Shown here: in pieces, positions 27,303 through 34,853 of the stretch
Numbering within the stretch: the first letter of the stretch is position 1
Layout: every line of letters starts with the position of its first letter
DNA from: Pirellulales bacterium
GTDB taxonomy: Bacteria; Planctomycetota; Planctomycetia; Pirellulales; JALHPA01
Direction of reading: 5' to 3'
DNA length: 64,000 nucleotides
NCBI GenBank assembly: GCA_049840575.1
Contig: JASGKV010000020.1
Location: 121,705-185,704, forward strand
Position numbers and translations under genes: made by a program
The notes under the pieces: model-generated
Told to the model about the DNA's origin: nothing
Databases searched by the model: none
What the model saw: the letters and a program-made list of their open reading frames with translations, nothing else

Positions 27303-28083
27303 CGTCGATCCTCCGAATTCGCTTGAGCGGAGTTCGCTTTCCCCGCGTCGGCTTCGGCCCAGGGATCGACGAACCCCGGTACGCCGTAGCGGTCGTGATG
27401 ACGCACCCAAGACATGCCCGGGAAGTCGGCTTCGTCGCGCCCTTTCGGGCAGACGTCCAGCAGGTTGTAAACGTTCAAAAAAATGTCTAAGCCGCGCGCA
27501 GTACGTCGAATAGGTGTGATAGATTTTGCCCGCGTCGTCGCGGATGAACGCGCTCAAGCCGGGCAGATCGGTGATCGGGTACGGCGGCGATTCGTAGTTG
27601 TAGATCGTGAGTGGGTTTTGCAGTTCCTGTTCGGTGAAATAGACGCCGAAGTCGCGATTGAACGTGTTGTCGCCCGACGAGACCCAGGGGAAATTCCAGC
27701 CCATCCGCGTGCGAAAGGCCAGCAGTTTGTCGATCGGCGCGCGAGACGGCCGCCAGCGAGACGTCGCGATGTCGGAGATGGACCACCGACGGGTCGAAAT
27801 GGTCCGCCACCAACGAGCAGGACTTGCAGCCCTGCGTCCACTCGGGCGCGAACATAAAGTGGTAGATCAGCAGTTGCCCGCGGCCGTCGAAGAGGTCGGC
27901 CAGCGTCGTTGGTCCATTCGGCCCCTCGAAGACATAGTTCTCTTGGACTTCGACCCACGGCAAGTCGCGGCGACGTTGCGCGAGTTCGTCCTTTTTGCGC
28001 GTGAACGCTTTTTCTTCATGCAGCAGACGCGTCCGTTCGACCAGCCAGTCCTTACGCGAGACGATTTTGTGATCCGACGACAT
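27299..28083 (-). CDS. DUF899 thioredoxin-like protein, frameshifted
   Basis: IVSRKDWLVER...RRRDLPWV...DLFDGRGQLLIYHFMF...GCKSCS...MGWNFPWVSS...YHTYSTY...WVRHHDRY. Confidence 0.9.
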
Positions 28084-28138
28084 GGAACGGTCTCCGAGTT
28101 GAAAGTCGGCTAAGTTGAAGGAAACGCCGAGTCGCGTG

Positions 28139-28597
28139 TTATTTCGAACGCGCGCGTGTCGCGGCGAGTTGTTGCATGCGTGCGAGCGAGTTACCCCAGC
28201 CTTCGTTGACGCCGGAACGATGCTCGGGCTCAATCTCGCCGAAAGCGCGGTGCAGCAGCGTCAGCTTCGTGCCGACCCCTTCGGCGACGAGTTTGTATCG
28301 CAGATGGTTGATCGCCGGATAGGACATGAACAGCGGACCGGTGATTTCGATCAAGGCTTGCGGTTTGATGACCTGCACGTGGCCCCACAGATGACCGCTT
28401 TGATCGCCGAGATCGCGGAACCATCGTCCGCCGGGCCAAGCTTCGAAGACCATCGGCATCGGTTTGCCGGGCAACTCGCAAGCGGGGCCGAGTTCTTCCA
28501 ACAGGCATTCGTACGCGATGTCGAGCGGCGCGTGGATGACGATTTCTTTCTCCACTCGCAAGCTTTGCAGACCATCCTTCGCGGTCGAGGCGACCAT
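28139..28597 (-). CDS. SRPBCC/AHA1-like domain protein
   Basis: VEKEIVIHAP...EAWPGGRWFRDLG...GHLWGHVQVIKP...LIEITGPLFMSYP...GVNEGW. Confidence 0.88.
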   Translation of the reverse strand: MVASTAKDGLQSLRVEKEIVIHAPLDIAYECLLEELGPACELPGKPMPMVFEAWPGGRWFRDLGDQSGHLWGHVQVIKPQALIEITGPLFMSYPAINHLRYKLVAEGVGTKLTLLHRAFGEIEPEHRSGVNEGWGNSLARMQQLAATRARSK

Positions 28598-28607
28598 CGT
28601 GACGCTC

Positions 28608-28970
28608 CTAAGAAACGAGGATTAATTTTTCGCGGCCCGCTCGGCCGCTTTGCGTTCGGCGCGGTGCTTGACGCGATCGAGTTGGTGCGACCAGAATCGC
28701 TCGAAGCTGCGCAGCCCAATCGAACACGGGCTTCAACTCCGCGGGGTTCAACGAATAGAGTCGGTTCTTGCCGCACTGCTCGACCGTGACCAGTCCGACC
28801 TGCGCAATACGCCGAGGTGCTTGGAGACCGCCGGTTGGGCCAAATCCAGGGCTGCGACGAGTTCGCCGACGGAGCGAGTCTTGCCGTCGGCCAGCAAGTG
28901 AATGATTCTCGCGGCGGCGCGGTTCGGCGACCGCATTGAAAACATCGGACGTGGTCGAAGCCCTGGACAT
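28608..28970 (-). CDS. ArsR/SmtB family transcriptional regulator, frameshifted
   Basis: MSRASTTSDVFNAVAEPRRR; SVGELVAALDLAQPAVSKHLGVLR; RLYSLNPAELKPVFDW. Confidence 0.88.
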   Translation of the reverse strand: MSRASTTSDVFNAVAEPRRRENHSLAGRRQDSLRRRTRRSPGFGPTGGLQAPRRIAQVGLVTVEQCGKNRLYSLNPAELKPVFDWAAQLRAILVAPTRSRQAPRRTQSGRAGREKLILVS

Positions 28971-28976
28971 GCCTGA

Positions 28977-29004
28977 ATCATATTCCGATAAAGGAATATG
29001 TCAA
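28977..29004 (-). promoter_or_regulatory. Sigma70 promoter overlapped by palindromic operator (probable ArsR autorepression, leaderless mRNA)
   Basis: Minus strand TTGACA-N16-TATGAT ending 6 nt before the ATG; inverted repeat CATATTCC-N6-GGAATATG at 28979-29000. Confidence 0.75.
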
Positions 29005-29084
29005 GTCGCGGTCGGAATTCGTACGTCGGATCGTTTTCCGCACGTGCGGCGACACGAGGGTCGTTGTTTCAAGAACGTTGCGGC

Positions 29085-29759
29085 TTACTTCGCTCGTTCG
29101 AGAGCGGTCTTCAACGGGCAATCGGACGCAGCCGGGTCGCCGCGTCGATAGCGTTCCAACAACGCTTTCGAGCGTTGAGCCAGCATCCGGCGTACTTCGC
29201 GGCGTTTGCCTTTGACGCGCGGGATCGTCATGCCGTCGTAGCCGGTCGTTTGATGACGCAGCCACGCGATCACGGCCGACTCGGCGCGGCGTTCGATCGG
29301 AATCCGCTCCGTCCGGGCGACCGTACCGCTGCCGACCGGCGTCGCATGCGCGGCGACGGCCGCGGCCAAGCGACGGCCCAACTCGTGAAAACGCGCGTGA
29401 AACGCCAGGTACGCGACGACCGCGTCGGTGAAATCCTCGACATACGCTTCTTGCTTCAACGCTCGGGTGCGCACGGCCGACGCTTGGCGTTTGGCGAACG
29501 TTTCCGTCGCGCGTTCGGCGGCCAAGTCGGTTTGAATGCGCTCGATCGTCGCGGCCGGCGCATAGACTCCGCGCGAAAACATCTTTCGGCCTTTCTTCTC
29601 TTGCACGATCCAGTGCGGACCGGCCGCTTTCACGCGACGCGTCAACGCGGCGTCGCCGGGGGCGAGCAATCGCCAATCGGCGGGAACGGGCAGCACACGG
29701 CCGTCGGCCGCGCGCACGGTGGTCGCCGAGGGACCCGGCGCAAACGTGTTCTCGCTCAT
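29085..29759 (-). CDS. DUF2293 domain protein
   Basis: PADWRLLAPGDAALTRRVK...KKGRKMFSRGVYAP...HATPVGSGTVARTERIP...AVIAWLRHQTTGYD. Confidence 0.85.
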   Translation of the reverse strand: MSENTFAPGPSATTVRAADGRVLPVPADWRLLAPGDAALTRRVKAAGPHWIVQEKKGRKMFSRGVYAPAATIERIQTDLAAERATETFAKRQASAVRTRALKQEAYVEDFTDAVVAYLAFHARFHELGRRLAAAVAAHATPVGSGTVARTERIPIERRAESAVIAWLRHQTTGYDGMTIPRVKGKRREVRRMLAQRSKALLERYRRGDPAASDCPLKTALERAK

Positions 29760-29868
29760 TCTGAATGACGGAAATAGGCCGCGCGTTTCGGCGGCGTCGT
29801 CGACGGAAACGGTCGGCTCGATCGCGAGCCGCGTAGGAGCGACCATTTGAGCGAACGGTACGTGCGAG

Positions 29869-29955
29869 CGGAAGGCAAGGGAGTCGAACCCTCACGACGG
29901 TAAAGTCGACCTGTGTAGCAAACAGGCCCGGCGAACCGTTATCCGGCTACCTTCC
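29869..29955 (-). tRNA. tRNA-Ser(GCT)
   Basis: GGAAGGT/GCCTTCC acceptor; CCTGT-TTGCTAC-ACAGG anticodon arm; long variable arm; GGTTCGACTCC T loop. Confidence 0.9.
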
Positions 29956-29976
29956 AAATATCATTCGGCGACCGAA

Positions 29977-30058
29977 TGGGTCGAGTCGGAATCGAACCGA
30001 CCTAGCTCAAGGAGCGACCGCTTTACAGGCGGCCCGGACTTCCAAGTCCAATCGACCC
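29977..30058 (-). tRNA. tRNA-Tyr(GTA)
   Basis: GGGTCGA/TCGACCC; CCGC-CTGTAAA-GCGG; long variable arm; GGTTCGATTCC. Confidence 0.9.
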
Positions 30059-30072
30059 AACATTGTGATTCA

Positions 30073-30146
30073 TAACGCGGGCGGGATTCGAACCCGCAAT
30101 CACGAAGGTTTAAGCTTCGTCGCCGTACCGGTTCGCGTACCACGTC
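30073..30146 (-). tRNA. tRNA-Leu(TAA), short variable loop
   Basis: GACGTGG/CCGCGTT; CGAAG-CTTAAAC-CTTCG; GGTTCGAATCC. Confidence 0.85.
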
Positions 30147-30157
30147 GGCGTCGTCAT

Positions 30158-30230
30158 CGGCTTGCCGAGGAATCGAACCTCGTCTGACCGTTTCGAAGAC
30201 GGTCGTGCGCATCCGGCACACTCGCAAGCC
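30158..30230 (-). tRNA. tRNA-Arg(TCG)
   Basis: GGCTTGC/GCAAGCC; ACCGT-CTTCGAA-ACGGT; GGTTCGATTCC. Confidence 0.9.
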
Positions 30231-30272
30231 GAAGTTCGCGAGGAACATTCATGACTGAGAAAAAACGAAAAA

Positions 30273-30345
30273 TGTCCCGGCGAGGAGTCGAACCTCGTCT
30301 GCGACCTTCGCAAAGTCGCGTGCGAATCCCTTACACTTCCAGGAC
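30273..30345 (-). tRNA. tRNA-Arg(GCG)
   Basis: GTCCTGG/CCGGGAC; CGACT-TTGCGAA-GGTCG; GGTTCGACTCC. Confidence 0.85.
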
Positions 30346-30377
30346 GATACGGAATCTTCCAGCGTTTCTCTCTTCAC

Positions 30378-30449
30378 TAGTGCGGGTGGGAGTCGAACCC
30401 ACAAACACTTGCTCCTAAGGCAAGTCGCTCGCCGTTGGCGTACCGCACC
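30378..30449 (-). tRNA. tRNA-Leu(TAG), short variable loop
   Basis: GGTGCGG/CCGCACT; CTTGC-CTTAGGA-GCAAG; GGTTCGACTCC. Confidence 0.85.
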
Positions 30450-30547
30450 CCATCGAAAACTCCGGCGTGATCCGAATTCAAACATTACCGGGAGCTACGC
30501 GGGTACGCTCCGACCCCGGTCACCCACAACCAACGCTGCATCCGCGA

Positions 30548-30622
30548 CGACCCATACCGGATTCGAACCGGTGCTCTCCGCTCCGACAAAGCGGCGTCCA
30601 CTCCAGGCTGGACCGATGGGCC
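30548..30622 (-). tRNA. tRNA-Asp(GTC)
   Basis: GGCCCAT/ATGGGTC; CCGCT-TTGTCGG-AGCGG; GGTTCGAATCC. Confidence 0.88.
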
Positions 30623-30658
30623 ATGATCGTCGTTCGCGTCCGTCATCAAACCTCTCAG

Positions 30659-30742
30659 CGGAAGGCCAGGGACTCGAACCCTGAAGCGGTTTCAGCGCCA
30701 ACCGTTTTCAAGACGGTCTCCTCATCCGGCCGGATGCCTTCC
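30659..30742 (-). tRNA. tRNA-Ser(TGA)
   Basis: GGAAGGC/GCCTTCC; ACCGT-CTTGAAA-ACGGT; long variable arm; GGTTCGAGTCC. Confidence 0.9.
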
Positions 30743-30769
30743 AATTCGTTTCGGATTACCTCTTCAAAC

Positions 30770-30837
30770 TGGACCTGCTGGGAGTCGAACCCAGTAACCT
30801 TGATTGCAAATCGAAGCGCCGACCCGTCGGCAGGCCC
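30770..30837 (-). tRNA. tRNA-Ala(TGC), atypical/shortened D arm
   Basis: GGGCCTG/CAGGTCC-A with G3:U70 identity pair; loop TTTGCAA; GGTTCGACTCC; only 68 nt. Confidence 0.7.
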
Positions 30838-30849
30838 ATGTCGTGACAG

Positions 30850-30922
30850 TGACTCGTGTGGGATTCGAACCCGACCTATCCGGTGTGAAAGACCGGCGAC
30901 CTCACCAGAAGTCGAACGAGCC
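30850..30922 (-). tRNA. tRNA-Glu(TTC)
   Basis: GGCTCGT/ACGAGTC; CCGGT-CTTTCAC-ACCGG; GGTTCGAATCC. Confidence 0.88.
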
Positions 30923-30996
30923 GTATTGCGCGACCGTCCGCGCGCACCGCGAGCGCGACGATCCAGCACATCGTTTTTCCTTGTAGCGAAACCGTG

Positions 30997-31068
30997 TGGA
31001 CCGGGAGGTGCTCGAACCCTCGTCCGCGGCTTTTCAGACCGCCGCTAAACCGTCTCAGCTACCGGTCC
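30997..31068 (-). tRNA. tRNA-Phe(GAA)
   Basis: GGACCGG/CCGGTCC-A; GCGGT-CTGAAAA-GCCGC; GGTTCGAGC T loop. Confidence 0.88.
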
Positions 31069-31097
31069 GTGTGTGATGAACGTCCGAAAACGGCACG

Positions 31098-31130
31098 AAA
31101 AAACCCGGTGTCCTATCAGGCACACCGGGT
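31098..31130 (-). terminator. Intrinsic terminator (putative attenuator) upstream of the first tRNA
   Basis: Minus strand ACCCGGTGT(G)CCT-GAT-AGGACACCGGGT-TTTTT, ending about 30 nt before tRNA-Phe. Confidence 0.85.
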
Positions 31131-31162
31131 CGCCAACGTGGTTACGTCGAGACGGTCGAGTG

Positions 31163-31264
31163 TCACCTGAGCGGTGCGCGAGCGGCGGAAGACTCCGCAT
31201 CCCGGGCGGCGAGTTCGCGTTCGAGTCGATACGAACGTGCGGAACTGAAGCGTAAGGAGAACAT
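31163..31264 (-). CDS. Putative attenuator leader peptide of the tRNA array (33 aa)
   Basis: MFSLRFSSARSYRLERELAARDAESSAARAPLR*; weak SD-like GGCGG 7 nt upstream; composition mirrors the array; stop-codon region is complementary to the terminator 5' arm. Confidence 0.75.
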   Translation of the reverse strand: MFSLRFSSARSYRLERELAARDAESSAARAPLR

Positions 31265-31331
31265 GAGAACGCCGCCGTGAGTTGAAAGAATGTCACCCGC
31301 ATGGCCGAATCGGCATGGCGGGGTCAAAGAA

Positions 31332-31358
31332 TAGACGCGACTCGACCGCCAAGGTTCG
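31332..31358 (-). promoter_or_regulatory. Putative ECF-sigma promoter for the leader/tRNA array
   Basis: Minus strand CGAAC-N16-CGTCTA, matching the generic ECF AAC-N16-CGTC pattern, about 68 nt upstream of the leader ATG. Confidence 0.55.
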
Positions 31359-31872
31359 TAGAAAAATCGGAATCCAGAAGAAGATTTTTGCTTGACCCTC
31401 ATAACTTGCGCGGAGGTGATGGCCAACCGACGCAAATGACTTGCTCCGATTTTGTCTCCGGGGCGAAATCGAAACAGTAACTCCATAGCGTCACCAAAAA
31501 CTCGCAGAGAAACACCGCTTCGCAACTTGACGGGCGAGGATCGCAACGGCTTTCGAATTTTCGGGCATCACGACTCCGGGGCAATCCAAATCGCGTCCTG
31601 GAAACGGTTTGCGGCAAGTGTAGGAAATTGTCGTCGACACAAGCGGAACACTTGACTTTCTTGCGATTGGTGTGTATACATAAATACACGTCATGCGGGA
31701 TGGTTCTGTTCCGCGATGGACAGGGTGGAACGGTCATGGGGGCGTCCGTCATCCACCGGCTCATCCTTCGAGCCAAGAAGCGGGCCTCGCGTAAGTTTAT
31801 TCACGTGTGTTACAGTAATTCGCTGTCCGTTGCTTCGCGCATTTGCCGTTCGCAACCGTATTTAGGTGTTTC

Positions 31873-33318
31873 ATGCAGACGTTTTTCAAAATCGCCGTCC
31901 TTGCGCTCTTAGCTTTCCAAGCGCCCATCATCGCGGCGGCGGAATCGGCGAAACCGAACATCATCGTGATCTTGGCCGACGACCTGGGCTACGGCGAGTT
32001 GGGCTGTTATGGGCAAAAGGTGATTCGCACACCGAATCTCGATCGCATGGCGGTCGAAGGCCTGCGGTTTACGCATTTTTATGCCGGGGCGACCGTCTGC
32101 GCGCCGTCGCGCAGCGTGTTGATGACCGGCCGGCATCATGGACACACGACCGTCCGGGGCAACGCTGGACAAACCAACCCCGCGGCGCAAGCGTTGAAGC
32201 CCGACGACGTCACCGTGGCGAAGGTGCTGCACGACGCCGGCTATCGAACCGCGCTCGTCGGCAAGTGGGGGTTGGGCGACGTCGGCGCGGCCGAACAGGG
32301 TCTGCCGCGCAAACAAGGCTTCGACGAGTTCTACGGCTTCCTCAACCAATCGCACGCGCATAACCATTATCCCGATTTTTTGTGGCGAAACGAGACCAAA
32401 GAAACGCTGCCGAACGATTTGGTCGCGAAGGGGAACGTTGGAGCCGGCTACGCGACGAAGCCCAAAGCCTATGCCGACGATCTGTTCGCCGACGAGGCGA
32501 TCAAGTTCGTCACGGCGAACAAGCAACGACCGTTCTTCTTGTTCTGGAGCATGGTCGTTCCGCACGCCAATAACGAACGCGCGGTCGCGTTGAAGAACGG
32601 CGCCGAAGTCCCCGACCTCGGGCCGTACGCCGACAACGATTGGCCGGAGACCGACAAGGGTCATGCCGCGATGATCACGCGCATGGACGGTTACGTCGGA
32701 CGGATGCTGGCCACGTTAAAGGAACAGGGGCTGGACGACAACACGTTGGTGATTTTCACCAGTGACAACGGTCCACACGACGAAAGCCGGCACGACCTGA
32801 CGCGGTTCACGCCGTCGGGGCCGTATCGCGGGATCAAACGGGCGTTGACCGACGGCGGCATCCGAGTGCCGTTCATCGCTCGCATGCCGGGCCGCGTGCC
32901 GGCCGGAAAAACGTCGGACCACGTCGGCTACTTCGGCGATCTGATGGCGACGTTCGCCGAGTTAGCCGGTGCGAGGCCGCCGCGCGAAGGCGATTCCGTC
33001 AGCCTGGTCCCGACATTGTTAGGCAAACCGGACGAGCAACAGCGGCACGAGTTTCTGTATTGGGAGTTTCACGAAGGGGGCTTCCGCCAAGCCGCGCTTT
33101 ATCAGGGTCGCTGGAAGGGGATTCGACGCGGTGCGCCGGACGCGACGATCGAGTTGTATGACACCGATCGCGACCCGAGCGAGAAAACCGATGTGGCCGC
33201 GGCGAACTCTGAAATCGCGACCAGGATCGGCACTTACTTAAACACCGCCCGGAGCGAATCGCTCGATTGGACGCCGCGTTGGAATCCACCCGGCAAAGCC
33301 AAAGCGGTCAATCCCTAA
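31873..33318 (+). CDS. Arylsulfatase
   Basis: Signal peptide; KPNIIVILADDLGYGELGCYG; formylglycine motif CAPSRSVLMTG; GKWGLG; FTSDNG. Confidence 0.95.
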   Translation: MQTFFKIAVLALLAFQAPIIAAAESAKPNIIVILADDLGYGELGCYGQKVIRTPNLDRMAVEGLRFTHFYAGATVCAPSRSVLMTGRHHGHTTVRGNAGQTNPAAQALKPDDVTVAKVLHDAGYRTALVGKWGLGDVGAAEQGLPRKQGFDEFYGFLNQSHAHNHYPDFLWRNETKETLPNDLVAKGNVGAGYATKPKAYADDLFADEAIKFVTANKQRPFFLFWSMVVPHANNERAVALKNGAEVPDLGPYADNDWPETDKGHAAMITRMDGYVGRMLATLKEQGLDDNTLVIFTSDNGPHDESRHDLTRFTPSGPYRGIKRALTDGGIRVPFIARMPGRVPAGKTSDHVGYFGDLMATFAELAGARPPREGDSVSLVPTLLGKPDEQQRHEFLYWEFHEGGFRQAALYQGRWKGIRRGAPDATIELYDTDRDPSEKTDVAAANSEIATRIGTYLNTARSESLDWTPRWNPPGKAKAVNP

Positions 33319-33371
33319 CGATCACAAAGTCGATCCGACTCACACCTTCCAAGTTCATTCCAGGTCGCATC

Positions 33372-34853
33372 ATGTCTCGCTTCGCGAAAATGCTTCGTTC
33401 GACGATCGTCGTGCTTTGCGCGGGCTGGTCGCTGCTTGCCGCCGCGCACGCCGCGCCGCCGAACATCGTGCTAATCATGGCCGACGACCTGGGCGTGGCT
33501 GAACTCGGCTGTTACGGACAGAAACTCATCAAAACGCCAGAGTTGGATCGCATGGCGAAAGAGGGCCTGCGCTTCACGAACTTTTACACCGGCAGTCCGG
33601 TTTGTGCGCCAAGCCGCTGCGTGCTGATGACCGGTCTGCACGGCGGGCACGCGTTCGTGCGCGACAATCGCGAGATCGGCAGCGGCCAGGGCCAACAACC
33701 GATTCCGGCCGACGCCGTGACGATGGCGAGCGTATTGAAAAAGACAGGCTACGCCACGGCCGCGTTCGGCAAGTGGGGACTCGGCAACCCGGGCGGGACG
33801 GGTGAGATCACCAAGCATGGGTTCGATCTGTTCGTGGGGTATCACGATCAGTACCACGCTCACTCGCACTATCCCACGCATCTTTTCCGTAACGGCGAGA
33901 AATTCGAGTTGCCCGGCAATACCGGCGGCAAGGGAACGCAACACACGCAGGACATTTTCGACGACGAAGCGGCCAAGTTCCTCGACGCGCAAGCCGCGGC
34001 GAAGACACCGTTTTTTCTGTACTTTCCCACGACCCTGACGCACGTTTCGTTGCACATTCCCCAGAAGTACGTCGACGAATACCGCGGCAAGTTGGGCGAC
34101 GACCCGGCGTTCGGCAAAGAGACCGATCATTACACGGGTCATGCGACGCCGCATGCCGCGTACGCCGCGATGGTGACGCGGTTGGATACGAGCGTGGGGA
34201 AGCTGCGGAAGAAGCTGGCCGATCTCAAACTGGCCGACAACACGTTGGTCGTGTTTCTGAGCGATAACGGTCCGACGCATGGTCGCGTCGGCGGCGCGGA
34301 CTCGAAATTCTTCAACTCGACCGGCGGCTTGCGCGGCTTGAAGGGGGACGTCTACGAAGGAGGCATTCGTTCGCCGTTGCTCGCCGTATGGCCCGCAACG
34401 ATCGCGGCAGGCGGCGAAAGCGAGCTGTTGTGCGCATCGTACGATCTGTTTCCGACGTTTTGCGATGTGGCCAAGATCGACGCGCCGAACCATCTGGATG
34501 GACTGTCGATCATGCCGACGTTGCTCGGCAAGTCGTCCGAGCAGAAGCCGCACGACTATCTATTCTGGGAGTTCGGCGGCTACGGCGGGCAGCAGGCGAT
34601 CCGCTACGAACACTGGAAAGCCGTCCGTCGACAGTTAAACAAAGGAACGATCAAGACAGAGATTTACGACTTGCGTAGCGACCCAAACGAAACGACCGAC
34701 GTGGCCGCGGACGTCCCGGCCGTGGCCGCCAAGATGGAAACGATCTTCAAGGAAGCCCGTACGCCGAACCCGATCTTCAAGATCCAAGCGATCGACGGCG
34801 CAACCACCGCACCGCCGCCCGGCAAAGCCGCCGCCGCGAAGAAGGCGAAATGA
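33372..34853 (+). CDS. Arylsulfatase
   Basis: PPNIVLIMADDLG; CAPSRCVLMTG; GKWGLG; FLSDNG; GLKGDVYEGGIRSP. Confidence 0.95.
   Translation: MSRFAKMLRSTIVVLCAGWSLLAAAHAAPPNIVLIMADDLGVAELGCYGQKLIKTPELDRMAKEGLRFTNFYTGSPVCAPSRCVLMTGLHGGHAFVRDNREIGSGQGQQPIPADAVTMASVLKKTGYATAAFGKWGLGNPGGTGEITKHGFDLFVGYHDQYHAHSHYPTHLFRNGEKFELPGNTGGKGTQHTQDIFDDEAAKFLDAQAAAKTPFFLYFPTTLTHVSLHIPQKYVDEYRGKLGDDPAFGKETDHYTGHATPHAAYAAMVTRLDTSVGKLRKKLADLKLADNTLVVFLSDNGPTHGRVGGADSKFFNSTGGLRGLKGDVYEGGIRSPLLAVWPATIAAGGESELLCASYDLFPTFCDVAKIDAPNHLDGLSIMPTLLGKSSEQKPHDYLFWEFGGYGGQQAIRYEHWKAVRRQLNKGTIKTEIYDLRSDPNETTDVAADVPAVAAKMETIFKEARTPNPIFKIQAIDGATTAPPPGKAAAAKKAK

Follow-up and report, generated by a model that had tools for sequence, protein, structure and literature searches.

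A candidate ribosome-dependent attenuator before spare tRNA arrays of Planctomycetota, with leader codons that tend to mirror the array

The window considered here is the whole analysed stretch of 64,000 nucleotides from a Pirellulales bacterium (Planctomycetota; assembly GCA_049840575.1, contig JASGKV010000020.1, positions 121,705 to 185,704). The source genome consists of 5.79 Mb in 30 contigs, with 60% GC and a completeness of 78.6%. On its minus strand the window carries an array of 11 tRNA genes, preceded by a short open reading frame (ORF) and a hairpin followed by a T-tract. This leader is the element under study, and it is interpreted below as a putative transcription attenuator, in which translation of the ORF would decide whether the array is transcribed. 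Its features are listed by position in the window, where MFE stands for minimum free energy and ECF for extracytoplasmic function, a class of sigma factors.

29868..31068, minus strand: tRNA array of 11 supernumerary genes, called by ARAGORN.
31098..31103, minus strand: T-tract of six T, ending 29 nt before tRNA-Phe.
31104..31129, minus strand: terminator hairpin, with region 3 at 31129-31116, the loop TGATA and region 4 at 31113-31104, from the full-length MFE fold.
31133..31150, minus strand: spacer hairpin separating regions 2 and 3, seen in each of the three folds, its sequence variable across the family.
31153..31170, minus strand: region 2, which holds the TGA at 31165-31163 and can pair with region 1 (family helix) or with region 3 (MFE folds without the terminator 3′ arm, and family helix).
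31163..31264, minus strand: leader ORF of 33 sense codons and TGA, product MFSLRFSSARSYRLERELAARDAESSAARAPLR*, read from the sequence and aligned with the family leader.
31244..31252, minus strand: region 1, codons 5-7 (CGC TTC AGT), the 5′ strand of the protector helix 1:2, placed by the family helix.
31331..31337, minus strand: -10-like element CGTCTAT, separated by a 15-nt spacer from the -35-like element; the hexamer ends 67 nt before the ATG.
31353..31357, minus strand: -35-like element GAACC of ECF type, a motif upstream of the leader ATG.

The array genes are packed head to tail on one strand, 11 in 1.2 kb, in the order Phe-gaa, Glu-ttc, Ala-tgc, Ser-tga, Asp-gtc, Leu-tag, Arg-gcg, Arg-tcg, Leu-taa, Tyr-gta, Ser-gct (ARAGORN). 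Dispersed housekeeping tRNAs cover most of these anticodons elsewhere in the genome, and the array is therefore regarded as supernumerary. Its genes show 75-90% identity to array tRNAs of other genomes and matched none of the dispersed tRNAs of their own genome. A search of 28000-33000 against Rfam at E<=1 recovered 9 of the 11 genes as tRNA or tRNA-Sec-like. Arg-tcg (30157-30231) is not among the matches at this threshold, and Ala-tgc (30769-30838) receives only weak sub-threshold matches to two non-tRNA, tRNA-like families; some members of the array may be degenerate. Upstream of the array, about 770 nt are non-coding, up to a divergent sulfatase gene at 31843.

The leader ORF begins with ATG at 31264-31262, continues through 32 more sense codons and ends with TGA at 31165-31163. 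An earlier sequence-only reading of the locus had proposed an attenuator whose codons mirror the tRNAs of the array, and the ORF that it quoted was confirmed letter for letter. The reading frame is open upstream as far as a TTG at 31546, and the ATG at 31264 is the start that aligns with the start codon of a family of leaders described below. The window leader aligns to this family at its N-terminus and at its P-L-R-stop end. It uses 9 amino acids, contains no run of codons for a single amino acid, and avoids Gly, and nearly avoids Pro, both of which have GC-rich codons, despite the 60% GC of the genome. Codons for Ile, Lys, Asn, Gln, Thr, Val and His are likewise absent.

The agreement of these codons with the array is unusual, although less so than first estimated. 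The count of 30 of 32 post-start codons inside the set of 28 codons in boxes served by the array was reproduced. The chance figure attached to it, about 1e-7, was too low: the box set accounts for 0.53 of the sense codons in all six frames of the genome, and the empirical probability of at least 30 codons inside the boxes, among all stop-free 32-codon windows in the six frames of this genome, is 1.8e-5, about 200 times larger. In terms of residues, 31 of the 32 after Met are amino acids served by the array (binomial p=5e-7 against the family amino-acid background). The statement that all 11 tRNAs have a codon in the leader was overstated. Strict wobble rules give 10 of 11, and such coverage is not distinctive. 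The 11 tRNAs are covered to 0.91 by their own leader and to 0.87 on average by other leaders of the family, the own leader ranking 75 of 129; since own and foreign leaders barely separate, the statistic that every array tRNA has a cognate codon was dropped for the window. The emphasis on disfavoured codons was right for TTA (4% of Leu codons) and AGT (7% of Ser codons), which are rare, and wrong for CGA (20% of Arg codons), which is not; TAT (36% of Tyr codons) is intermediate.

A fortuitous match, produced by GC-rich composition and by the choice of the ORF after the fact, is barely credible. The box set does comprise 53% of six-frame sense codons, the eight amino acids comprise 53% of long-ORF residues, and the ORF was picked once the array had been seen. 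The ORF is now fixed independently by its homology to the family leader, however, the empirical probability is 1.8e-5, and further arrays show the effect with other amino-acid sets.

Downstream of the ORF, the intrinsic terminator that had been placed just before tRNA-Phe was found at 31129-31098. It reads CCCGGTGT(G)CC-TGATA-GG-ACACCGGG followed by six T, and forms a bulged 10-bp stem; because of the bulge it was missed by a simple promoter and terminator scan. The pairing proposed between the stop segment and the 5′ arm of this terminator also appeared: when the terminator 3′ arm is omitted, the MFE fold pairs 31170-31157 with 31127-31116. In the fold of the full-length window sequence, the terminator forms instead of this pairing.

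The comparative evidence comes from related arrays. A search with the whole locus in 61 related genomes matched only the tRNA part and revealed long arrays that start with a homologous tRNA-Phe. Upstream of those tRNA-Phe genes, 14 of 14 loci contain an ATG-started ORF with its TGA in ..CTTGTGAC[GA]C.., then GCCCGGTGTCAC..GACA[CT]CGGGC and a T-run. A query of leader plus tRNA-Phe matched 133 of 401 genomes of the order, which is an upper bound because a housekeeping tRNA-Phe can match the query. A pattern scan of species-representative genomes gave at least 120 matching stretches; the 80 titles among the matches listed are nearly all from Planctomycetota and include Pirellulales, Planctomycetaceae, Gemmataceae, Thermoguttaceae and Candidatus (Ca.) Kuenenia. 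The resulting collection comprises 129 unique leader/array pairs; in 70 the array is uncut by a contig or locus end, and the truncated arrays (59 of 129) were left out of all tests that need array content.

The collection is defined by several rules. A leader was accepted only when adjoined by a tRNA on the same strand, and the first set was also found by homology; a loose regular expression for the 3′ part has 92 matches in the window genome and is nonspecific alone. New leaders shorter than 23 residues were left out. Array content is given by ARAGORN calls, with tRNAs across gaps of more than 1300 nt counted as separate. The start ATG was taken from the shortest ORF of at least 31 codons, a rule that is wrong for at least one locus, L216, where a -35 box lies 8 nt before the rule-chosen ATG and the likely leader has 19 codons.

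Nearly all pairs share one cassette, composed of an ECF-like promoter, a leader of about 35 codons, a stop codon in the antiterminator, a protector helix and a terminator. The sequence-only reading depended on homologous arrays having such ORFs, and in 129 pairs a leader ORF with its stop in the antiterminator, followed by the terminator, precedes the first tRNA. The tRNA genes follow the leader in all 129 pairs, the first being tRNA-Phe in 105, and the arrays range from 1 to 42 tRNAs. The distance from the T-run to the first tRNA has a median of 31 nt, leaving little room for a separate promoter. The distribution of the cassette is patchy and its genomic contexts are unrelated; upstream genes were compared at the 31 loci preceded by 2 kb or more of sequence, and no gene family recurs at more than 3 of them. 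The window genome holds a single copy, at the array. Close relatives of the window type of leader were found neither by its exact 24-nt terminator string in the genome contigs nor by a two-part pattern in metagenome contigs. Full arrays also contain, between tRNA-His and tRNA-Trp, an ORF of about 200 amino acids that matches Pfam HNH (E=3e-14 to 6e-14); no HNH gene is present in the reduced array of the window. Two examples of this ORF are:

L031:4936-5547, minus strand: Pfam HNH endonuclease.
L039:4427-5041, minus strand: Pfam HNH endonuclease.

Some matches lie at the margins of the family. Most carriers are uncultured organisms, but a record titled Thalassoglobus neptunius KOR42 (L182), a cultured carrier, has the cassette with an array. 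Two records of Ca. Entotheonella (L188, L220), outside Planctomycetota, contain the attenuator with an array. Pattern matches in Ruegeria sediminis (L147) and in an Opitutaceae metagenome-assembled genome (L204) have no tRNA within 300 nt and may represent chance or a different use. A leader variant of 16 residues, MECISQTNSHPY[PR]LR[MQ], precedes arrays that start with Pro-Pro-Asn (L154, L165, L171, L180) in records titled Ca. Kuenenia and Planctomyces, and may be a shortened or internal attenuator.

Several signatures of the family leader are those of a coding sequence. All 83 first-set leaders, which were selected for such an ORF, read open in the TGA frame, and stops interrupt the two other frames in 67 of 83 and 50 of 83; about 11 further motif rows adjoining tRNAs have no ATG-started ORF in the TGA frame. 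Independently of ORF calls, a conserved GAA codon precedes the TGA by 28 to 192 nt, and this interval is divisible by 3 in 70 of 88 distinct leaders. In the N-terminal block the third codon position is the most variable (1.23 bits, compared with 0.92 and 0.94). Of 127 leaders, 62 have a Shine-Dalgarno-like 4-mer at -18..-4, compared with 19, 17 and 11 of 127 in three control windows, and the start codon is conserved in the family alignment. The encoded peptide is itself conserved, as ..LRPSSIQER..G.GYSA..AGN.P.HPLRL, and ends with ..LRL in 86 of 129 leaders.

These signatures bear on the possibility of an RNA-only switch, in which a ligand, a protein or a tRNA would bind the leader in the manner of a riboswitch or T-box and the open frame would be incidental. 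Such a switch would account for the conserved alternative helices, and T-box elements are a precedent, as RNA leaders of this kind can read tRNA status directly. The explanation is nevertheless very improbable, given that indels preserve the frame in 70 of 88 leaders, a single frame is open, third positions vary more, Shine-Dalgarno-like sequences are enriched and the start codon is conserved. Moreover, no Rfam family, T-box included, was found in 31098-31360 at E<=1 in the scan of 28000-33000.

The RNA helices of the family are arranged around this ORF. The terminator is present in the RNAalifold consensus structure with 10 pairs that show compensatory changes, for example 21 changes from GC to AU at one base pair. 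Its stem has a median of 10 bp and -21.3 kcal/mol and is followed by the T-run. The antiterminator 2:3 is a 13-bp helix between the stop segment and the terminator 5′ arm with its loop, where 85% of the cells of the alignment are paired, compared with only 26-50% when the partner is slid. The sequence of this helix is very conserved, hence it offers few double changes. The window supplies a case in which both strands changed together, TCAGG..ACAC/GTGT..CCTGA replacing CTTGTGAC/GTCACAAG. Folded without the 3′ arm, 122 of 129 leaders pair the stop segment with at least 5 nt of the terminator 5′ arm; the control for this result is weak, since a shuffled stop segment of the same composition still pairs 4.1 nt on average.

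A third helix was recognised from folds of the nascent RNA, extending to 12 nt past the stop, in which region 2 pairs with sequence 70-110 nt upstream. This protector 1:2 joins codons 4-7 to the 9 nt that follow the stop (in alignment A1, columns 18-26 with 172-180). It is paired in 80% of cells, compared with 26-38% when slid, and contains 37 doubly changed cells compared with 12.1+/-2.7 in shuffled alignments, none of 500 shuffles reaching 37; one of its positions alternates between GC, AU and CG in the ratio 18:12:2. The stop codon lies always within the segment complementary to the terminator 5′ arm. Taken from these alignments, the family has the complete four-segment layout of a trp-type attenuator.

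The same arrangement bears on the idea of an independent small gene, which would encode a peptide of 30-40 amino acids and end with its own terminator, the array being transcribed separately or by leaky read-through. The conservation of the peptide (86 of 129 with the same ending) and the strength of the terminator (median -21.3 kcal/mol) would agree with such a gene. Yet a gene of this kind gives no reason for a stop that is always inside the segment complementary to the terminator arm, or for a covarying helix that ties the start of the ORF to the stop region. It would likewise leave unaccounted a cassette that stands directly before the first tRNA in 129 pairs of unrelated context, at a median of 31 nt, and that occurs once in the window genome, at the array. 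We consider this explanation highly improbable.

Transcription of the cassette would begin at a promoter of ECF type. Of 83 distinct regions upstream of the leaders, 62 carry the motif GAAC[CTA]-N15/16-[CA][GA]TCT[AG] in the 200 nt before the ATG, and none of the 83 has it on the reverse complement. All copies have a spacer of 15 or 16 nt, and they lie a median of 79 nt from the ATG. According to the available part of the source (PMC3426412), promoters of ECF sigma factors are marked by an AAC within the -35 element, a CGT within the -10 element and 16+/-1 nt between them, and this signature is found in the conserved GAACC-N15/16-CGTCTA upstream of the leaders. In the window genome the motif has 5 matches, compared with about 7 expected from base composition. 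No sigma gene was found adjacent to the arrays, and a simple scan of the window region found no sigma-70-like promoter.

Combined, these elements suggest the following mechanism. From the promoter GAACC-N15-CGTCTAT (31357-31331), transcription would start some 60 nt ahead of the leader ATG. Translation of the leader ORF (31264-31163) would accompany a competition between four RNA segments: region 1 in codons 5-7, region 2 with the TGA stop, region 3 formed by the terminator 5′ arm and loop, and region 4 by the terminator 3′ arm, followed by the T-tract. When no ribosome is present, regions 1 and 2 would pair, the 3:4 terminator would form and the array would be off. A ribosome at the stop codon would, judging from the size of its footprint, cover region 2, so that 3:4 would terminate transcription again and the array would remain off. 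When ribosomes are delayed within the leader, region 1 would be covered or unwound, region 2 would be free to pair with region 3, and RNA polymerase would read into the tRNA genes. The tRNAs thus made would relieve the delay and close a negative feedback loop. The proposed triggers of the delay are cleavage of tRNA, starvation and antibiotics. Over evolutionary time the codon set of the leader would follow the tRNA set of its own array, in which case the loop would report a shortage, or the charging state, of those tRNAs that the array can supply.

The last step of this mechanism predicts that leaders and arrays vary together. Over their 31-36 codons, leaders of full arrays use 26.1 different codons and encode 15.1 amino acids, compared with 21.4 and 13.4 in 33-codon coding windows of the window genome; as this is the window's own genome, differences in host codon bias may contribute to the gap in diversity. 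In 18 of 18 full arrays, more anticodons are represented in the leader than in random coding windows. For arrays of 2-16 anticodons, own leaders cover 0.88 of the tRNAs and foreign leaders 0.75 (permutation p=0.0002). When leaders are permuted among arrays that lack some amino acids, the own combinations stand out at z=5.3-6.3, also without the window and L023. Among 37 reduced complete arrays, the leaders of 11 are enriched for the amino acids of the array at p<0.05, 7 at p<0.01 and 3 at p<0.001 against the family amino-acid background, where about 1.9, 0.4 and 0.04 would be expected. The reduced arrays with such leaders include the following five, the last with a hand count from its promoter-corrected start; L174, L050 and L140 are also enriched at p<0.01.

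Window (L001), array serving ADEFLRSY: 31/32 leader residues match, p=5e-7.
L023, array serving Phe, Glu, Ser, Leu: 22/32 leader residues match, p=4e-5.
L186, array serving Ser, Leu: 19/34 leader residues match, p=1e-4.
L194, array serving Phe, Asn: 8/27 leader residues match, p=0.002.
L216, array serving Pro, His, Thr, Arg: 11/18 leader residues match.

As permutation ignores relatedness, a test on sister pairs was added. Each of the 70 complete arrays was joined to its most similar unused neighbour, with the non-coding segment from stop to terminator as marker of similarity; the prediction is that a leader suits its own array better than the leader of its partner does. Of the 35 disjoint nearest-neighbour pairs, 27 differ in the predicted direction, 6 in the opposite direction and 2 not at all (sign p=1.6e-4, Wilcoxon p=3e-6), so the co-variation that the sequence-only reading had named as a check is present. 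Without the pair of the window, the result is 26 to 6 (about 2.7e-4, by hand). The effect rises with divergence, its mean being 0.05, 0.15 and 0.29 in three identity bands. The sequences suggest that leaders were re-tuned in separate lineages with reduced arrays, namely those of the window and of the Ser/Leu, Phe/Asn and Pro/His/Thr/Arg types.

A number of observations weigh against this interpretation of the window and of the family. The fold energies of the window leader are not better than those of shuffled sequences (z = -1.7, -1.2 and -1.3), and with scores that are not significant the energies alone show nothing. Its 1:2 helix, read by hand, allows 7 of 9 pairs with 2 mismatches and is missing from the MFE fold. 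No Shine-Dalgarno-like 4-mer stands at -18..-4 before the window leader. Under strict wobble, the array tRNAs read only 19 of 32 window codons, as TCC (three times), GCC (three times), CTC (three times), TCT and GCT are readable only with four-way reading by U34. Two of the 11 window tRNAs, Arg-tcg and Ala-tgc, are of uncertain function, given their poor Rfam matches. The ECF-type promoter implies that control of initiation could dominate. In place of codon sensing, constraint by the RNA structure or a role of the peptide itself could account for its conservation. Among the pairs, the 19 with at least 0.80 identity give 13 to 4 with a mean effect of only 0.05, and greedy pairs are only approximately independent. 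The first version of the pair test, with 57 complete arrays and the leader-to-tRNA sequence as marker, was weak (18 to 8, p=0.038), and its 12 most similar pairs gave 6 in the predicted direction, 5 opposite and 1 zero. Enrichment at p<0.05 is absent in 26 of 37 reduced arrays, which mostly keep the canonical peptide, and arrays cut to one to seven tRNAs often retain the canonical leader; these non-enriched arrays look like recent truncations. Leaders of the Ser/Leu type retain 5-7 Arg codons, although their arrays lack any Arg tRNA. The mirroring of array by leader is a tendency.

Part of this evidence would suit the same attenuator acting as a generic sensor of translation speed, responding to antibiotics, global starvation or ribosome damage, in which the identity of the leader codons is irrelevant. 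The co-variation would then be a by-product of ancestry, of drift in composition after constraint was lost, or of the amino-acid usage of the host. Most leaders keep one conserved peptide whatever the array contains, 26 of 37 reduced arrays are unenriched, the closest pairs divide 6/5/1 in the first test and show a mean effect of 0.05 at identities of at least 0.80 in the enlarged one, and any family leader already covers 70-90% of the tRNAs of any array. A cyanobacterial parallel exists in Anabaena, whose array responds to every class of ribosome-targeting antibiotic according to the available text of PMC8421152. A generic sensor should, however, produce symmetric differences when sister leaders are swapped, yet 27 of 33 non-zero pairs differ as predicted. 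The re-tuned leaders also differ in direction (ADEFLRSY, EFLS, LS, FN, HPRT), so that one trend in host composition cannot explain all of them, and the window leader, without Gly and almost without Pro at 60% GC, belongs to the top 1.8e-5 of open windows. The generic sensor is accordingly rated as unlikely, while far ahead of chance, of a small gene and of an RNA-only switch.

The element is most simply read as a ribosome-dependent transcription attenuator that gates a horizontally spread spare tRNA array, and this reading is, on the comparative sequence evidence, the probable one. The attenuator as such is very likely to be real, while the tuning of the leader to its own array appears somewhat better supported than not. 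The interpretation of the sequence-only reading as a whole is supported by the comparison of leaders and arrays. A further reading, on which the odds lie only a little above even, is that of a self-contained, horizontally mobile feedback module, in which a tRNA operon gauges its own products through a leader that co-evolves with the array. If so, the leaders of full arrays sample nearly the whole code, those of pared-down arrays have been rewritten toward their own amino acids, and each array would be induced only by the shortages that it can repair and switched off once they are repaired.

The closest known relatives in architecture are the attenuators of trp, his, leu, thr, ilv, pheA and pheST in enterobacteria. 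The planctomycete element shares with them a short translated leader, protector, antiterminator and terminator helices with a U-tract, and a stop codon at region 2; as in the trp and his types, the position of the ribosome would decide the outcome. In contrast to these, the family leader has no run of a single amino acid, about 15 amino acids and 26 distinct codons being spread over some 33 positions. The genes under control encode tRNAs in place of enzymes or synthetases, some 80 nt separate region 1, at codons 4-7, from region 2, and the cassette travels with a mobile array behind an ECF-like promoter. The element is set apart from the trp/his family proper because it has neither a regulatory codon run nor enzyme genes downstream.

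T-box riboswitches are also leaders with a terminator and antiterminator that report the status of tRNA. They bind one uncharged tRNA directly, independently of translation, and control synthetase or amino-acid genes. Unlike them, the window leader has no T-box match and the family leader has a coding signature.

In physiological logic, the most likely analogues are upstream ORFs (uORFs) that sense translation stress. Short upstream ORFs of the erm and cat type belong to the same class of translation sensors. The whiB7 uORF, toiL and the erm and cat leaders are said to control regulators, toxin-antitoxin or resistance genes, not tRNA genes, and we know of no leader of this class with a codon set that matches its own products. 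The available parts of the two sources describe the uORF of mycobacterial whiB7 (bioRxiv 10.1101/2023.06.02.543512) and that of toiL in E. coli (PMC12121999) as such sensors, which turn ribosome slowing of many causes into downstream expression.

Long tRNA arrays are best known from cyanobacteria. In the available text of PMC8421152, the long array of Anabaena sp. PCC 7120 (the trn operon) is silent until translation is impaired, and cyanobacterial L-arrays have an associated HNH endonuclease gene. The planctomycete arrays resemble them in being supernumerary, horizontally spread and associated with HNH. The Anabaena operon is controlled at initiation, through tandem 9-nt repeats over the -10 box and the repressor TrcR, as far as the accessible parts of PMC8421152 and PMC10272220 go. 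The Anabaena array hence has a repressor at the promoter, whereas the planctomycete arrays have a putative leader attenuator and an ECF-like promoter; the words terminator, leader, uORF and attenuat- are absent from the text of PMC8421152. Planctomycete tRNA clusters have been described as degenerate and horizontally acquired, and regulation goes unmentioned in the available portion of that source (PMC4807772). No description of an attenuator or leader peptide before tRNA genes was found in the full-text literature searched.

The regulation of individual bacterial tRNA genes is largely unknown, and the Anabaena promoter repeats were called the first indication of it (PMC8421152, available text). 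The planctomycete attenuator would be a second, mechanistically different answer. In it the classical four-region attenuator would be reused so that the translation apparatus regulates its own adaptors, with a sigma factor as the sole dedicated trans-acting factor. Such control would explain how large spare arrays are carried silently and are still useful after horizontal transfer. The family would also provide a natural set of multi-codon sensors with a specificity rewritten several times, and the cassette of about 250 nt is a possible portable sensor of elongation stress or of particular tRNA pools.

Several minor observations concern the content of arrays and leaders. In L139 and L140, an array of 13 tRNAs is followed, after about 2.3 kb, by six further tRNAs (Ile, Lys, Ile, Pro, Tyr, Glu), which the 1300-nt gap rule set apart as a second block; the leader there has Pro codons and no Ile, Lys or Tyr codons. 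Many arrays (for example L021, L024, L025) contain a tRNA-Ile with anticodon tat, and canonical leaders have ATA codons (..CGC ATA GG..). In the window genome ATA makes up 6% of Ile codons, and the window array and leader are both without tat and ATA, respectively.

The tRNA-Leu genes of the window array, taa (30073-30146) and tag (30378-30449), have a length of 72-78 nt and are without the long variable arm, as also in L003, L004 and L010. The dispersed tRNA-Leu genes of the genome measure 83-85 nt, and the array tRNA-Ser and tRNA-Tyr retain long arms. Outside the array, the 78.6%-complete assembly yielded no tRNA-Leu of anticodon taa or caa; if this is true of the genome, only an array product could read leader codon 4, TTA (31255-31253). 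The longest spacer of the array, between tRNA-Asp and tRNA-Leu, contains a segment of about 50 nt (about 30488-30537) with 86-87% identity to two other sites of the genome (G000:C8:44669-44717 and C22:911775-911819), which may be a small repeat element.

Other open frames and genes surround the element. An ATG-started ORF of 85 codons (31302-31045, minus strand) overlaps the leader in another frame, crosses the terminator and ends within tRNA-Phe. This frame is probably spurious; any ribosome that initiated on it would melt the switch. Two intergenic open frames of 127 and 125 amino acids were rejected, their Arg/Ser-rich translations being unlike protein. A DUF2293 gene (29085-29846, minus strand) starts about 20 nt past the last tRNA on the same strand, which makes co-transcription possible. 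On the promoter side, two sulfatase genes, at 31843-33318 and 33267-34853 on the plus strand, diverge from the array.

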